DNA of 64,000 nt from an uncultured Pseudomonadota bacterium (lineage in GTDB: Bacteria; Pseudomonadota; Alphaproteobacteria; Rs-D84): positions 69,131 through 133,130 of the forward strand of contig CADBDF010000001.1 of NCBI GenBank assembly GCA_902793435.1. Direction: 5' to 3'. Made by a program: the position numbers and the translations under genes. Within the stretch, counting starts at the first letter, position 1; each line of letters begins with the position of its first letter. The notes under the pieces are model-generated. The model did no database searches. It was not told where the DNA came from and was given only the letters and a program-made list of their open reading frames with translations. Shown piece by piece: positions 6,445 through 51,851 of this stretch.

Positions 6445-9400
6445 ATGGCATACCCAAAAACAGAAACAAAAACAGACTTTTCAAAACTTGAACGTGAAAT
6501 AATGGAGTTTTGGCGTCGTGATGATACTTTCCATAAATCGTTGAATAAAACAAAATTAGGACATCCGTTTTCTTTCTATGATGGGCCACCGTTTGCCAAT
6601 GGTTTGCCACACTGGGGGCATTTAGGGGTTTCTGCGGTCAAAGATATGGTTTGCCGTTATCATACTATGCGTGGCGAATATGTTGAACGCGCATTGGGTT
6701 GGGATTGTCACGGGCTTCCAGCAGAGGCATCTGTTGAGAAAAAACAAGGTCGCACAGCCAAAGATATTGTGGCATTGGACGGTATTACACATTTTTGTGA
6801 TTTATGCCGCCAGGATGTTATGACATATTCTAATGAGTGGTTAAAGTTTATTGAACGCGTCGGTCGTTGGGTTGATGGTGGCGACGAATTTGGATATCGC
6901 ACCATGGACAGAAACTTTATGGAATCTGTGATGTGGGCAATGAAGGAATTGCATAAGAAAGGTTTGTTATACAAAGATTTCAAAGTTAATCCATACGATT
7001 GGAAATTGGGTACCGTATTATCAAACAGTGAAGCATCAAGCGAATATCAAGACGTCGTTGATGATACTGTGACCGTTTGGTTCGAATTAGAAAATGGCGA
7101 CAGGGCGATTGCATGGACAACAACACCATGGACATTGCCAGCAAATTCTGCATTGGCGGTGAATAATAATATGCGCTATGTTCGTATGAAACACGATGAT
7201 GGACATGTTTATGTTTTGGCAGAAAGTCGCGTTAAAGCATACGAAAAGATTTTTGCAAATTCTGAAAATCTGGGAACGGTTATGGGTGCCGAATTGGTTG
7301 GTTTGCACTATAAACCAATATTCCCATACTATACAGATTTAGCCAAAGACGGTCATGGTTTATACACAATTATTTCTGGCGATTATGTCAGCGACAGCGA
7401 CGGTACCGGTATCGTGCATATTGCACCAGCGTATGGTGAAGACGACTATATCGTTGCCAAGGCAATCGACCCACAATTTCCTGTGATTTTAAATGTTGAT
7501 GATTATGGTAATTTTGATTCAACGGTCACAGAGTGGGCGGGTGAAAATATTTTCGTTGCAAACCCAAAGATTATCGATTGGTTGCGCCAAAATGGAATAT
7601 TGGTTAAAAAAGACCAACATAAACACAGTTATCCATACGGCCCACGCAGTAAAGAAAAATTAATCTATCGCGCAACAGATGCTTGGTATGTTGATGTGCC
7701 AAAGATTCGCGACAGATTGGTTGAAATAACCAAAACACAAACAACATGGACATCCGCGGGTAATCGTTTCTTGTCATGGATTGAAAATGCGCGTCCATGG
7801 GGTATTTCGCGCAATCGTTTCTGGGGTGTGCCATTACCAATTTGGGAACGGGACGGCGAATACAAAATCTTTGGTTCGGTCGCAGAATTAGAAGAATTCT
7901 TTGGTGTAAAAATTGATGATTTACACAGACCAACATTGGATAAATTGGAAAAAGACGGATGGAAAAGAATTCCAGATGTTTTAGATTGTTGGTTTGAATC
8001 GGGTTCTATGCCATTTGCATCTTTGCATTATCCCTTTGAAAATAAAGATTTGTTCGATAAAACTTTCCCGGCGGATTATATTATCGAAGGTCAAGACCAA
8101 ACACGCGGTTGGTTCTATCATTTGATGATTATGTCCGTTGCGTTGTTTGATAAACCTGCGTTCCGCGTTGTATCTGCAAATGGTATGGTTGTAGATGAAA
8201 ACAAACGCAAGTTTTCAAAATCTTTGCAAAACTTTGTAAATCCCGAAGAACAGTTAAACGCGTACGGTGCAGACGCAATTAGACTTTTCATATTGGGCAG
8301 TAATTTCTTGAAAGCAGAACCTGTGCCTGTGGATAAAGAAGGCAAAGTGTTTGTTGATTCAATTAAAACAATTTTGACGCCGTTGTGGAATGCGTACCAT
8401 TTCTTTACATTGTATGCAAATGCAGGAAACGTGACCGCAGAATTAAAAACAACATCTCAAAATGTTTTGGATAAATATATAATTGCTGAATTAAACGAAG
8501 TTATCCGTATTGCAACAAATTCTTTGGACGAATATAAACCAGATGTTGCAATCAAAGAATTTGTTCGTTTCTTGGATGTATTAAACAACTGGTATATCCG
8601 TCGCGGACGCGCACGTTTCTGGGACGAAGAGAAGGACGCATTTAATACCTTGTATTATGTATTGGTGAATTTTACCAAGATTTTGGCACCTTTTGCGCCT
8701 TTTATCAGTGAATATATCTATAAAAATTTAACAGGTGCAGAATCTGTGCATTTGACCGATTGGCCAACAGTTGTGGATGTTGATAACTCTGTTGTCCAAG
8801 ATATGCGCCATGTTCAATCGATTGTTTCGGTTGGAAACCAGTTGCGCGAACAATATAAATTACCAAATCGTCTGCCTTTGCAAGACATGACAATTGCAGG
8901 TAAAAACGCACAACAATATGCCGATATTATCCGCGATGAATTAAATGTAAAGTCTGTAAATTTCGTTGATAATATTGCATCTGTGGCTGATTCATTTGTA
9001 TATTTAATCACACCAAAGATTGGTGCGCGTTTGGGTTCTGCATTAAAAAATATTATTCCGGCTGTGAAACAGGGTAATTACAAAATCGATGGCGATAAAT
9101 TATTGGTTGGTGATTACACATTGAACAGTGACGAATTTGAAAGTCGTTTGACTGTAAAATCTGGTATCACAGGTGCCGCATTACCAGACAGTACCGCTGT
9201 CGTGGTATTAAACACAAATGTCACCCCAGATTTATTAGTCGAAGGTTTGGCGAATAATATATTGCGCTTTATCCAAGATTCGCGTAAAGCCGCAAATCTG
9301 GACGTGTCCGACAGAATCAATTTGGTATATAGCGGTGACAACGATATAGAAAACGCAATCAATACACACCGAGATATGATTGTGCGTAATGCGTTAATTG

Positions 9401-9483
9401 TTAATTTGTCGAAGGCATCAGCCACACAATTTGAAACAGAAATTGACGGACATAAATTCGCAATCAAAATTGAAAAAGCATAA
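6445..9483 (+). CDS. ileS: isoleucyl-tRNA synthetase, type 2 (eukaryote-like)
   Basis: FSFYDGPPFANGLPHWGHL (HIGH region in the type-2 style) and the KFSKSL KMSKS motif. 1012 aa with no C-terminal Cys cluster. Confidence 0.95.
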   Translation: MAYPKTETKTDFSKLEREIMEFWRRDDTFHKSLNKTKLGHPFSFYDGPPFANGLPHWGHLGVSAVKDMVCRYHTMRGEYVERALGWDCHGLPAEASVEKKQGRTAKDIVALDGITHFCDLCRQDVMTYSNEWLKFIERVGRWVDGGDEFGYRTMDRNFMESVMWAMKELHKKGLLYKDFKVNPYDWKLGTVLSNSEASSEYQDVVDDTVTVWFELENGDRAIAWTTTPWTLPANSALAVNNNMRYVRMKHDDGHVYVLAESRVKAYEKIFANSENLGTVMGAELVGLHYKPIFPYYTDLAKDGHGLYTIISGDYVSDSDGTGIVHIAPAYGEDDYIVAKAIDPQFPVILNVDDYGNFDSTVTEWAGENIFVANPKIIDWLRQNGILVKKDQHKHSYPYGPRSKEKLIYRATDAWYVDVPKIRDRLVEITKTQTTWTSAGNRFLSWIENARPWGISRNRFWGVPLPIWERDGEYKIFGSVAELEEFFGVKIDDLHRPTLDKLEKDGWKRIPDVLDCWFESGSMPFASLHYPFENKDLFDKTFPADYIIEGQDQTRGWFYHLMIMSVALFDKPAFRVVSANGMVVDENKRKFSKSLQNFVNPEEQLNAYGADAIRLFILGSNFLKAEPVPVDKEGKVFVDSIKTILTPLWNAYHFFTLYANAGNVTAELKTTSQNVLDKYIIAELNEVIRIATNSLDEYKPDVAIKEFVRFLDVLNNWYIRRGRARFWDEEKDAFNTLYYVLVNFTKILAPFAPFISEYIYKNLTGAESVHLTDWPTVVDVDNSVVQDMRHVQSIVSVGNQLREQYKLPNRLPLQDMTIAGKNAQQYADIIRDELNVKSVNFVDNIASVADSFVYLITPKIGARLGSALKNIIPAVKQGNYKIDGDKLLVGDYTLNSDEFESRLTVKSGITGAALPDSTAVVVLNTNVTPDLLVEGLANNILRFIQDSRKAANLDVSDRINLVYSGDNDIENAINTHRDMIVRNALIVNLSKASATQFETEIDGHKFAIKIEKA

Positions 9484-49547: not shown

Positions 49548-49574
49548 TGAAATCTCCATTATTTTTATAAAAAC

Positions 49575-49740
49575 AAAAAAACCACCAAAAAATAAAAGGT
49601 GGTTGGAGTCTCATAACAATCAGTAAGATTTGTGTGCTTATTCGATATATTCACACACTCCAACCAATGTTGGAGTTTTTACGCCACTCTGGCGCTTACT
49701 GCTGGGTTATGAGGCCCGATTCCAAGAACACCTTGGAACA
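49575..49740 (-). promoter_or_regulatory. structured 5' leader RNA ending in an intrinsic terminator (copy 2 of the two-copy family)
   Basis: On the minus strand: 5' hairpin UUCCAAG/CUUGGAA; GGGC; P1 CUCAUAAC..CAGUAAG / CUUACUG..GUUAUGAG; P2 CGCCA-GAG-UGGCG; ACUCCAAC-AUUG-GUUGGAGU; P4 GUGUGUG...CACACA. A third ACUCCAACC overlaps the terminator AACCACC-loop-GGUGGUU-U7. Confidence 0.5.
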
Positions 49741-49837
49741 CATTTGTATTTTATGTTATGAATTGTCAAAAATCAAGTTTTTGGTTAAAAAATCTTGCAA
49801 ACTGTATTTTTTGATTATATCATATTTGTATGTTTTA

Positions 49838-49960
49838 TGGGTGCGGCGCCGGTGAAGTGACTGACAACCACAGAGGTTCCAAAGCCCAAGGTAAAGTGAT
49901 AAATTCGGGTGGCACCGCGCGTTAAAATCGCGCCCCGAAATTTAACTGAAAAAAAACCGG
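49838..49960 (+). promoter_or_regulatory. T-box leader (tRNA-sensing riboswitch) upstream of aspS
   Basis: AAAUUCGGGUGGCACCGCGCG at 49901-49921 matches the T-box consensus GGGUGGNACCGCG. It folds as an antiterminator: A1 UUCGGG/CCCGAA, 7-nt bulge UGGCACC, A2 GCGCG-UUAAAAU-CGCGC. UGGC is complementary to a GCCA 3' end (G73, as in tRNA-Asp). The candidate specifier is GAC followed by A at 49863-49866. Confidence 0.6.
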
Positions 49961-50002
49961 GTGCCAAAAAAATCCGTTTAGTTTTTATTGGTACCCAAAA
50001 AT

Positions 50003-50062
50003 CCCACTTCGCAAATGCTTTGTGGGACAAGTGCCCACGTCGCAAATGCTTTGTGGGACAAG
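50003..50062 (+). repeat. tandem 29-nt repeat (31-bp period) in the aspS leader
   Basis: CCCACtTCGCAAATGCTTTGTGGGACAAG at 50003-50031 and CCCACgTCGCAAATGCTTTGTGGGACAAG at 50034-50062. Each unit can form a CCCAC/GTGGG hairpin. Confidence 0.9.
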
Positions 50063-50078
50063 CAAAAAAGGGACCAAA

Positions 50079-51851
50079 ATGTTATCTTTAAAATCTAAAT
50101 ACAGAACACATACTTGTGGCGAATTAAATATTGCCAATGTGGGTGAAACAGTCACTTTGGCTGGGTGGGTGCATCGCAAACGCGATCATGGATCGTTGTT
50201 GTTTGTGGATTTGCGCGATAATTACGGTATTACACAATGTGTGTTTGATGGTGGGGACGAAAGATTAGAAAAAATTCGCCCTGAATCTGTTGTTCAAATT
50301 ACAGGGACCGTTGTTGCACGTGAAATGGAGGCAATAAATGAAAAAATTCCCACAGGACATATTGAAATCAAGGCTGATAAAGTTAATGTTTTAACAAATG
50401 CCGAAGTATTACCTTTCCAGGTTTTTGGTGATGAAGATACAAGTGAAGAATTGCGTTATAAATATCGTTTCTTGGATTTGCGTCGTGAGAAGTTGCATTA
50501 CAACATCTTGATGCGCAATAAAATGATGAAATGGTTAAGGGACAAAATGTGGGATTTGGGTTTTTCCGAATTTCAAACACCATTATTGACCGCGGATTCT
50601 CCCGAAGGTGCGCGCAGTTTCTTGGTGCCGTCCAGATTACATCATGGTAAATTTTACGCGTTGCCCCAGGCACCACAAATGTTTAAACAGTTATTGCAAG
50701 TATCTGGGTTTGACCGTTATTTCCAAATCGCGCCTTGTTTCAGGGACGAAGATTTGCGCGCAGACAGATTGTTGGAATTTTACCAATTAGATATGGAAAT
50801 GTCTTTTGTTGATGTTGGTGATATTCAAGCCGTTGGCGAGGTTATTATGCCGGAAATGGTGAAAACTTTTGCGCCAGATGCAAATGTTTATCCGTCGATT
50901 CCACATATTTCTTATGATGATGCAATGTTGAAATATGGTTGCGATAAACCTGATTTGCGTAATCCTATTTTAATTAGTGATGTGACGGAAATTTTCCGCG
51001 GGTCTGAATTTGGAATCTTTGCAAATGCGATTGAAAATGGCGCGGTTGTGCGTGCTGTGCCGGCACCAAATAGTGCAGACCGTCCGCGTTCTTGGTTTGA
51101 TAAATTGGGCGAATATGCCGTCAAAGAGTTAGGCTTGGGCGGATTGGGTTATATCGTGTTTGCCGATGAGCCAAAAGGACCTGTTGCAAAAAAATTAGAT
51201 GCAGATCGTATTGCAAAATTGAAAGAGATTGCAGGTGATAATTCTTCGTTGTTCTTTGTTTGTGACAATGTAGATGTGGCGGCAAAGGCGGCGGGTAAAT
51301 TGCGTAATAAATTAGGTGCAGATTTGGGATTGGTCAAAGAACGCGATTTCGCATTTTGCTGGGTTGATAATTTCCCGTTCTTTGAACCAGACGAAGAACG
51401 CGGTGGTGCGCCGGCATTTACGCATAATCCGTTTTCGTATCCTATTGTTGATTCAATCGAAGATTTATCAACACGCGACCCATTTTCTATCAAGGCTGCA
51501 CAATTCGATATGGTGTTGAACGGTATTGAAATTTGTAGTGGTGGGTTGCGCAATTATAACCCAGAAATTATGAAAAAGTGTTTCGAAATTGCCGGCTATC
51601 CAATCGAAGCAGTCGAGAAAAACTTTTCTGGATTATATACTTCGTTCCAATATGGTGCGCCACCACATGGTGGTTGTGCGTTTGGTATTGAACGCGTTGT
51701 TTCCGAAATATTGGGTATCGGTGACAGTTTGCGCGAAATCGTTGCGTTCCCTGCAAATCAACGCGGACAAGATTTGTTGATGGGGTCACCGAATGAGGTT
51801 ACCGAACAACAACTGCGTGATGTACATATTCAAATCCGCAAGAAAATGTAA
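50079..51851 (+). CDS. aspS: aspartyl-tRNA synthetase
   Basis: MLSLKSKYRTHTCGEL...GWVHRKRDHGSLLFVDLRD (OB-fold N-terminus), QSPQ-like LPQAPQMFKQLL, FRDEDLRADR, and class II motif 3 GGCAFGIERV. The ATG at 50079 is preferred over the GTG at 50022. Confidence 0.95.
   Translation: MLSLKSKYRTHTCGELNIANVGETVTLAGWVHRKRDHGSLLFVDLRDNYGITQCVFDGGDERLEKIRPESVVQITGTVVAREMEAINEKIPTGHIEIKADKVNVLTNAEVLPFQVFGDEDTSEELRYKYRFLDLRREKLHYNILMRNKMMKWLRDKMWDLGFSEFQTPLLTADSPEGARSFLVPSRLHHGKFYALPQAPQMFKQLLQVSGFDRYFQIAPCFRDEDLRADRLLEFYQLDMEMSFVDVGDIQAVGEVIMPEMVKTFAPDANVYPSIPHISYDDAMLKYGCDKPDLRNPILISDVTEIFRGSEFGIFANAIENGAVVRAVPAPNSADRPRSWFDKLGEYAVKELGLGGLGYIVFADEPKGPVAKKLDADRIAKLKEIAGDNSSLFFVCDNVDVAAKAAGKLRNKLGADLGLVKERDFAFCWVDNFPFFEPDEERGGAPAFTHNPFSYPIVDSIEDLSTRDPFSIKAAQFDMVLNGIEICSGGLRNYNPEIMKKCFEIAGYPIEAVEKNFSGLYTSFQYGAPPHGGCAFGIERVVSEILGIGDSLREIVAFPANQRGQDLLMGSPNEVTEQQLRDVHIQIRKKM

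Follow-up and report, generated by a model that had tools for sequence, protein, structure and literature searches.

T-boxes are regarded as a regulatory device of Gram-positive bacteria, namely Firmicutes and Actinobacteria. The question raised by the locus studied here is whether such an RNA precedes aspS, the gene for aspartyl-tRNA synthetase (AspRS), in an uncultured alphaproteobacterium, and in what way it would then act on the gene. The DNA analysed, hereafter the window, is a 64 kb stretch of contig CADBDF010000001.1 (assembly GCA_902793435.1), and all positions follow its numbering unless a relative is named. A sequence-only reading of the window had described a T-box-type antiterminator upstream of aspS, with a bulge suited to tRNA-Asp, in a genome that otherwise did not resemble that of a Firmicute. 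The leader was examined as a T-box RNA over about 49831-50081.

Published precedents are scarce: a 2008 survey recorded proteobacterial T-boxes only before leuA in two deltaproteobacteria (PMC2494555), in the database TBDB the search for translational T-boxes was restricted to Actinobacteria (PMC7778990), and no report of an alphaproteobacterial T-box was found in the open-access full-text literature. Our results indicate that the aspS leader is very probably a T-box RNA of about 105 nt with predicted tRNA binding. As an explanation of the whole locus, we assign a probability of roughly 0.6 to a reduced T-box that would control aspS through a four-segment translational relay.

The T-box fold of the aspS leader

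The regulated gene is aspS, as proposed (710.9 bits to the NCBIfam aspartate--tRNA ligase NF001750); its product displays the Pfam domains tRNA-synt_2, tRNA_anti-codon (OB fold) and GAD within the open reading frame 50022..51851. The fold of helix A1, bulge and helix A2 described upstream of it at 49901-49939 was recovered with every coordinate in agreement with the sequence: AAAUUCGGGUGGCACCGCGCG occupies 49901-49921 and contains GGGUGGCACCGCGC at 49907-49920 (read directly), the T-box sequence (...GGGUGGNACCGCG...) makes up the 5' strand of the discriminator, in which two helices flank a 7-nt bulge, and the local folding energy is -14.5 kcal/mol. The first four bases of the bulge, UGGC at 49910-13, are compatible with a tRNA carrying G at discriminator position 73 (G73), as had been suggested. 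Upstream of the discriminator, the invariant UGA...GA, a 3-nt bulge and covarying C and NC helices on either side define a kink-turn (K-turn, GA motif), which in the window matches the Rfam RF00230 consensus gaUGA...GGAGc and would be expected to adopt the corresponding three-dimensional kink. The apical loop beyond the K-turn lies within GUGACUGACAACC (49857-49869) and centres GAC at 49863-49865, followed by A49866 and placed 44 nt before GGGUGG; thus, a codon fitting the regulated gene is followed by a purine, as in a specifier.

The Stem I region is short, as the sequence-only reading had already flagged as unusual, and several modules of canonical T-boxes were looked for and not found. About 30 nt separate Stem I from A1, with no conserved or predicted pairing that would correspond to a Stem I platform, Stem II or the IIA/B pseudoknot, and no F-box CCGUUA occurs in this interval in the leader family. 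No Stem III hairpin precedes the discriminator, and only the flanking AAAGUNAUAAA string is retained. In canonical T-boxes purine strings flank Stem III (the RF00230 consensus reads AAAGuG-[Stem III]-AAaUaGGGUGG at this position), and the window linker at 49888-49903, for which RNAalifold predicted no pairing, is their counterpart with Stem III itself missing.

An Rfam scan at the gathering threshold (93 bits for RF00230) returned no T-box in the window, where only four tRNAs were reported, nor in 10 related loci; hence, we relied on the E-value mode and on comparative analysis. In the E-value mode, a 601-nt search gave RF00230 as the top Rfam match (32 bits, E 2.3e-5), with only the discriminator confidently aligned (posterior probability about 1). 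RF00230 was also the top match in the relative L006, with 25.9 bits.

Comparative evidence was collected at two depths. The close relatives are 12 genome-assembly loci retrieved by AspRS protein at 75-89% identity, all from gut and rumen alphaproteobacterial metagenome-assembled genomes (MAGs), one of them named Ca. Enterousia; the host of the window is itself a gut/rumen alphaproteobacterium close to 'Ca. Enterousia', which bears out the suspicion of a T-box outside Firmicutes. The sequence GGGUGGCACCGCGC lies before aspS in 12/12 of these relatives, mostly 100-111 nt from the start codon (64 nt in L009), so that the element is invariant where its absence had been named as a ground for doubt, and the A1 sequences differ among them yet still pair. 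Furthermore, metagenomes were scanned with a pattern in which nothing but the K-turn, AAGU and the T-box was specified, and any codon as well as any base at the N of UGGN was allowed. It yielded 95 stretches, all with UGGC and with aspS as the downstream gene wherever this was readable; no other specificities or regulated genes emerged from this free-codon pattern, only aspS leaders with GAC or AAC and UGGC.

We aligned 94 distinct core sequences and tested a structure of four helices and 21 base pairs against controls in which the pairing partners were slid by 1-3 columns. Paired cells amounted to 92.5% (33-54% in the controls), compensatory double changes were present in 13/21 base pairs, and the covariation score reached 0.514 (≤0.143 in the controls); the same four helices were predicted independently by RNAalifold. 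The UGA...GA of the K-turn and GGGUGGCACCGCGC are each invariant in 94/94 leaders, GCGCCCC is invariant as well, and compensatory changes affect 7/7 C-stem pairs and 2/3 NC pairs, and the outer A1 pairs and the A2 extension pairs covary. The lower stem is long, its sequence differs by subgroup and its pairing is always kept. From the K-turn in the 3' direction, the family displays one non-canonical position, a 3-bp helix (GUG/CAC, GCG/CGC or AUG/CAU) and a 9-nt loop N-C-Y-R-A-C-A-A-N; the apical hairpin is followed by about 18 unpaired A-rich bases, AAAGUNAUAAA and the discriminator. The element is not a chance match, as conservation and covariation both follow the T-box fold.

When a covariance model (R1) was derived from the 94 leaders, the leader of the window obtained 92.3 bits, no further copy was detected in the window and 68 more distant aspS loci gave no similar hit, which confines the reduced form to one gut/rumen alphaproteobacterial clade and to aspS. 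No T-box-like leader precedes the IleRS-like gene of the window (6445-9483), which encodes a class I synthetase of 1012 aa with tRNA-synt_1, Anticodon_1 and DUF5915 domains and lies downstream of tRNA-Thr(CGU). The coordinates of the aspS leader are collected in Table 1.

Table 1. Coordinates of the promoter, leader and regulated gene at the aspS locus of the window.
Feature	Sequence or elements	Position	Strand	Evidence or remark
Promoter, sigma-70-like	TTGCAA-17 nt-TATCAT	49795..49823	+	Promoter scan, consensus matching only
Stem I		49839..49887	+	Conserved UGA...GA, compensatory changes, RNAalifold
Stem I distal helix	GGGU with GCCC	49839-42 with 49884-87	+	
Stem I proximal C-stem	GGCGCC with GGUUCC	49845-50 with 49875-80	+	
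K-turn	Bulge GGU; G.A/A.G from GA + GA	49851-53; 49854-55 + 49873-74	+	
A.A mismatch in Stem I	A.A	49856/49872	+	
NC helix	GUG with CAC	49857-59 with 49869-71	+	
Apical 9-nt loop	ACUGACAAC	49860-68	+	
Specifier (putative), within apical loop	GAC (Asp codon) + conserved 3' purine A	49863..49866	+	Triplet conservation
A-rich single-stranded linker	Ends in AAAGUGAUAAA (49893-49903)	49888..49903	+	AAGU and AUAA columns conserved in alignment
Discriminator (antiterminator/anti-sequestrator fold)		49904..49939	+	RF00230 alignment, covariation, fold energy
A1 helix	UUCGGG with CCCGAA	49904-49909 with 49934-49939	+	
T-box bulge, 7 nt	UGGCACC	49910-49916	+	
A2 helix	GCGCG with CGCGC; loop UUAAAAU (49922-49928)	49917-49921 with 49929-49933	+	
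Complement of GUUAAA 49921-26 (last base of A2 5' strand + A2 loop)	UUUAAC	49941..49946	+	Read from sequence
Segment 2 ('anti-T-box')	GGGUGCCA + A-run	49959..49972	+	Invariance, complementarity to bulge
Segment 3	U-run + UUGGUACCC (49988-96)	49982..49996	+	3' arm of hairpin with segment 2; complementary to ribosome-binding region
29-nt hairpin modules, two tandem copies	CCCAC(U/G)UCGCAAAUGCUUUGUGGGACAAG	50003-31 and 50034-62	+	Between segment 3 and Shine-Dalgarno
Segment 4, ribosome-binding region	AAGGGACCAAAAUG; GGG 50070-72, start codon 50079-81	50068..50081	+	
aspS, bacterial-type aspartyl-tRNA synthetase, 590 aa, regulated gene		50079..51851	+	Pfam and NCBIfam

The triplet at the specifier position had been put forward in the window as a candidate, and the conservation of RAC followed by A in 108/108 leaders picks out the same triplet. 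It is GAC (Asp) in 78/108 leaders and AAC (Asn) in 30/108, with no other codon; the A that follows is invariant, the flanking loop positions vary, and the fourth bulge base (UGGN) is C in 108/108 leaders; only one specificity class is represented. A neighbour-joining tree was built from 600 nt of aspS at 90 loci; it requires a minimum of about 10 switches between GAC and AAC, a rough figure that tree error inflates. GAC and AAC are the codons of the two tRNAs charged by a non-discriminating AspRS. Since most Alphaproteobacteria lack AsnRS and their AspRS charges tRNA-Asn, an Asp or an Asn specifier would each report on an AspRS substrate, and the AspRS of this lineage is presumably non-discriminating. 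Regarding the acceptor end, bacterial tRNA-Asp carries G73; neither the window nor the related loci retrieved yielded a tRNA-Asp, and a tRNA-Asn(GUU) was located in the clade member L103 (2474-2549, minus strand), with G73, an encoded CCA and the acceptor stem UCGGGCA/UGCCCGA, which fits the UGGC bulge.

Expression platform and alternative explanations

In agreement with the sequence-only reading, nothing resembling an intrinsic terminator was detected in 49550-50150, and no stem followed by a U-run lies between 49940 and the start codon. The term antiterminator is thus probably a misnomer for a fold that is itself present, a role of the discriminator helix as anti-sequestrator in the control of translation being more likely. 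Two further segments lie downstream of A1 in 86/91 leaders, namely an invariant GGUGCC (segment 2) and, after a loop, a U-run with GYRCCC (segment 3). Segment 2 is complementary to the bulge (segment 1) at 7/7 bases in 84/86 of these leaders; its last base varies between A and G, and either can pair with the U of the bulge. In the window, GGUGCCA at 49960-66 is complementary to the entire bulge UGGCACC, and GGGUGCCAA at 49959-67 is complementary to segment 3 too, whose GGUACCC was read directly at 49990-49996. The two possible partners of GGGUGCC had therefore been recognized correctly, whereas its position had been given as 49951-57; it is actually found at 49959-49965, and the end coordinate 49960 assigned to the element cuts through it.

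Pairing between segments 2 and 3 (2:3) was kept in 89.8% of cells across the 86 leaders, compared to 38-52% in slid controls. Segment 3 drifts, with mismatches in 24-26/86 leaders at two positions and no compensating change in segment 2, which implies that segment 2 is constrained by something other than segment 3; the bulge would be the obvious candidate. In the window, the local fold with the bulge paired to segment 2 (1:2) has -17.4 kcal/mol and the 2:3 hairpin -16.4 kcal/mol. In the L001-type subgroup, pairing of AAAUCUUA, located in the A2 loop, with UAAGAUUU is conserved as well and is used in predicted OFF folds; at the equivalent place of the window, GUUAAA/UUUAAC is a possible inner helix that would extend the 1:2 alternative fold. 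This alternative helix employs the bulge and not the 3' strand of the discriminator, and would reach the Shine-Dalgarno (SD) sequence only via the relay. Pairing of the AAAGUGAUAA linker or of a K-turn strand with the first aspS codons was also considered; it appeared in some folds, inconsistently across subgroups, and was dropped.

The sequence of the ribosome-binding region (segment 4) follows the form of segment 3 present in the same leader: the window has GGGACCAA, and other leaders have GGUGU, GGGGUC or GGCGA. The GGGACCAA of the window resembles segment 2 (GGGUGCCAA) and is able to pair with segment 3. Over the 86 leaders, the duplex energy of segment 3 averaged -9.1 kcal/mol with the ribosome-binding region of the same leader, compared to -8.4 kcal/mol with the regions of other leaders, -5.5 kcal/mol with shuffled regions and -5.1 kcal/mol with 28 other start regions of the window. 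As the own-versus-cross comparison was not discriminating (only 0.8 kcal/mol apart), generic start regions were used instead: the own region beats the generic mean in 85/86 leaders, and in the window it reaches -11.4 kcal/mol, better than all 28 other start regions. The ON and OFF states were modelled as ensembles with the discriminator or the 1:2 pairing enforced, respectively, the latter replacing a block of the A1 3' strand that had given inconsistent folds. Both ensembles are nearly isoenergetic (mean difference +1.45 kcal/mol across the family), and the predicted SD accessibility falls family-wide from 0.51 (ON) to 0.36 (OFF).

With the integration of these findings, we propose the following mechanism. 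The apical loop of the short K-turn hairpin would present GAC followed by A (AAC in some relatives) to the anticodon of tRNA-Asp or tRNA-Asn, and base pairs would form between 5'-UGGC-3' of the bulge and the 3'-GCCA end left free in an uncharged tRNA. The long covarying stem below the K-turn is probably a spacer between these two contact sites and, more speculatively, might hold the anticodon and acceptor contacts apart in the manner of a strut. When no uncharged tRNA is available, segment 2 (GGUGCCR) would fill the whole bulge, imitating the acceptor end in cis and competing with it, and segment 3 (U-run and GYRCCC), freed in this way, would pair with the A-run/GGG ribosome-binding region and block initiation (OFF). 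Conversely, an uncharged tRNA on the bulge would let segment 2 pair with segment 3, leaving the ribosome-binding site open for the synthesis of more AspRS (ON). The translational relay taken by itself stands, in our judgement, at about even odds. The most specific form of the proposal, a minimal T-box of ~105 nt in a Gram-negative lineage that would recognize tRNA with neither elbow platform nor Stem II, pseudoknot or Stem III, and in which, as a platform not described before, a cis 7-nt acceptor-end mimic competes at the bulge and relays to the ribosome-binding site by way of a second hairpin, with repeated flips between Asp and Asn sensing, is offered tentatively, with chances slightly under one half.

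Several observations weigh against this mechanism. The RF00230 match, although the best Rfam match in the region, lies far under the gathering score (32 vs 93 bits); this cut-off is not decisive, since L059, a clostridial aspS leader with a canonical T-box and a terminator, falls short of it too at 71 bits, and so does the alphaproteobacterial leader L020 (49.4 bits). Stem II is absent here and essential in known T-boxes with an ultrashort Stem I, so that affinity may be low or another partner may help. Owing to the single specificity class, covariation of codon and discriminator cannot be shown, and the tRNA-Asp of the lineage was not found among the loci retrieved; likewise, the invariance of the bulge means that the 1:2 pairing cannot be proved by covariation. 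The energies of segment 3 with its own and with other leaders' SD regions barely differ (-9.1 vs -8.4 kcal/mol), and the shift in SD accessibility is modest, with the expected direction in 54/86 leaders. The leader of the window itself favours the ON fold by 7.8 kcal/mol and has its SD predicted paired in both states, a poor fit to the model due in part to the two stable hairpins inserted at 50003-62 (-25.6 kcal/mol). Finally, four leaders (L009, L111, L115 and L131) lack segments 2 and 3. These are short-form leaders with the SD about 20 nt after the discriminator, and in three of them the loop bases that follow the specifier are ACC, not AAC (ACUGACACC).

Part of this evidence would also accommodate genuine T-box sensing with a switch that acts elsewhere, on mRNA stability through an RNase site, on Rho-dependent termination or on the folding of the inserted hairpins, the complementarity of segment 3 to the SD being incidental. 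Such a switch is unlikely in our estimation, despite the fact that the 1:2 and 2:3 pairings are well supported and the 3:4 pairing on energies only, that the window SD is predicted paired in both states with up to two extra hairpins between it and segment 3, and that four leaders do without both segments. It leaves the far greater complementarity of aspS start regions to segment 3 than that of other starts, in 85/86 leaders, as a coincidence, together with the recurrence in different subgroups of an SD region that is a degenerate lookalike of segment 2 (GGGACCAA vs GGGUGCCAA; GGUGU vs GGUGCC); furthermore, no terminator was found, and the composition of the leader, rich in A and not in C, is unfavourable for Rho loading. 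Canonical transcription attenuation, with the helix at 49904-49939 as an antiterminator opposed to an intrinsic terminator, is the mechanism of most known T-boxes (PMC7583486) and is exemplified in our own search by the clostridial leader L059 with its GAAGGAUUUUUU terminator. It is highly improbable at this locus, where no stem and U-run follow 49940 before the start codon, the 3' half of the antiterminator has no downstream complement, and the U-run (49982-86) is enclosed in the 2:3 hairpin, ahead of the 3' arm, in all subgroups.

The fold could also be read as a relic, in a leader whose ligand is a protein, for instance AspRS itself, which would then autoregulate through a tRNA mimic like that of E. 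coli thrS, or a factor that recognizes K-turns, given that K-turns are common protein-binding sites and that the auxiliary tRNA-docking modules are missing. There is a very slim chance of this, as the loop triplet and the bulge complement the Asp/Asn anticodons and GCCA, respectively, and are not copies of them, the 14-nt T-box sequence is invariant in 94 leaders, and the triplet toggles only between the codons of two tRNAs chargeable by AspRS. Membership in another RNA family or a fortuitous match has practically nothing in its favour beyond a match to manA RNA (RF01745; 26.6 bits, E 6.7e-5, over 49839-50016), which we rejected as chance: it is below the gathering score of that family (55.2 bits), it is not seen in L006, where the T-box stays on top, and the conservation and covariation follow the T-box fold. 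Taken together, a reduced T-box with a translational relay is the reading that we retain.

Inserted modules, promoter and neighbouring observations

The start codon had been noted to lie about 140 nt away, and 139 nt were measured between the end of A1 and position 50079. This long distance is mostly explained by the insertion of the two 29-nt hairpin modules, which many relatives lack. Modules occur at the same place in 14/91 leaders, in 0, 1 or 2 copies even among close relatives, with covarying stems (CCCAC/GUGGG, CCCCC/GGGGG), and are absent from L139, which is otherwise near-identical to the window upstream. The two copies of the leader are the only ones in the 64 kb window, and the idea of a dispersed repeat was accordingly set aside. 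The 3' arm of the module, GUGGGAC, resembles the SD region AGGGAC.

The sigma-70-like promoter of Table 1 would place the transcript start about 7-10 nt ahead of Stem I, and sequence inspection revealed TTGCAA or TTGAAA with TATAAT-like pairs at the equivalent place in L006, L007, L011 and L012. Divergent from this promoter, a candidate small RNA of about 170 nt was identified at 49570-49745 on the minus strand, behind a minus-strand promoter-like site (49776->49748). It is predicted to contain a hairpin, a multibranch domain closed by CUCAUAAC/GUUAUGAG and a terminator-like CCACC...GGUGG followed by U7, with a folding energy of -63 kcal/mol (z = -6.2). It carries two CUCCAAC motifs and one GGUUGGAG, gave no Rfam match, and is conserved with compensatory stem changes in L139, L155 (2 copies), L100 (2 copies), L134, L096, L175 and L142. 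In addition, L001, L005, L008 and L010 share the sequence ...ACACTCC(C/T)ATCACAAAAAC(A/T)(T/G)CACAAT(A/C)(C/T)GCA(G/A)TATCT..., about 150-250 nt upstream of the aspS leader and downstream of tRNA-Thr(GGU), which is absent upstream of the leader of the window.

Comparison with known T-box systems

With a conserved family of no fewer than 94 distinct aspS leaders, the gut and rumen Alphaproteobacteria would widen the known host range of T-boxes, and the current Rfam threshold misses such elements in MAGs. If the reduced architecture is true, it would be the smallest natural T-box so far, it would put to the test the view that a truncated Stem I needs Stem II, and it could provide a compact scaffold for engineered tRNA sensors; a relay based on sequestration of the bulge, together with toggling between Asp and Asn, would then represent new ways to monitor the charging of two tRNAs served by one enzyme.

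The closest known parallels are the translational T-boxes of the ileS type. These share with the leader of the window a K-turn at the base of a short Stem I, a specifier in the apical loop followed by a purine, a 7-nt UGGN bulge, the lack of a terminator, control at the ribosome-binding site (which in the window we infer) and ON and OFF states close in energy. Both differ in gene and host (ileS, compared to aspS in Alphaproteobacteria), and the ileS-type RNAs keep Stem II (S-turn), the IIA/B pseudoknot and Stem III, whereas the leader of the window is devoid of all three and displays a long stem below the K-turn instead. In the ileS-type RNAs, it is the 3' strand of the anti-sequestrator that the sequestrator uses; in contrast, the competitor in the window would pair with the bulge itself and a second hairpin would relay to the SD. 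A small energy gap between ON and OFF has been described for the translational ileS T-box of M. tuberculosis (PMC11297988). In translational T-boxes with a short Stem I and an apical-loop specifier the Stem II domain is essential and the truncated Stem I alone barely binds tRNA (PMC7583486), and because of this requirement the design of the window is one step beyond the known minimal T-box forms.

The glyQS-type T-boxes of Bacillus and Geobacillus are likewise naturally reduced, without Stem II and the IIA/B pseudoknot, and follow the same logic of K-turn, specifier and discriminator. However, they keep a long Stem I whose distal double T-loop platform stacks on the tRNA elbow, a platform that the leader of the window lacks, as well as Stem III and an intrinsic terminator, and their specifier is located in an internal loop rather than in the apical loop.

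A possible origin of the reduced form is suggested by two loci from gut alphaproteobacterial MAGs ('Rickettsiales'), L020 (2828-2972) and L023 (~1730-1833), where an AspRS about 54% identical is preceded by a fuller T-box. Similar to the window, these leaders lie upstream of aspS and possess a K-turn with a short hairpin, an apical AAC, a UGGC bulge and no terminator; unlike it, they retain Stem II, the IIA/B pseudoknot (CCGGGCAAGCCCGUCA / ...CCCGUUA; CCGUCA/CCGUUA) and Stem III. In L020, which scores 49.4 bits against RF00230, the SD-like UGGUGA (GGUGA) is directly complementary to the bulge CACCA. These two leaders may represent the fuller ancestral state of the reduced form, and the fact that they keep the same K-turn and apical loop alongside the additional modules suggests that the form in the window arose through loss of Stem II, the pseudoknot and Stem III. 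With regard to the Asn specifiers, Asn-specific T-box control of an operon for a non-discriminating AspRS and GatCAB was reportedly described in Clostridium acetobutylicum by Saad et al. in 2012 and 2013. That T-box, said to be a transcriptional and full-size (tandem, two-codon) element of a Firmicute, is a precedent for reporting the status of tRNA-Asn, which would explain the AAC specifiers found on aspS.

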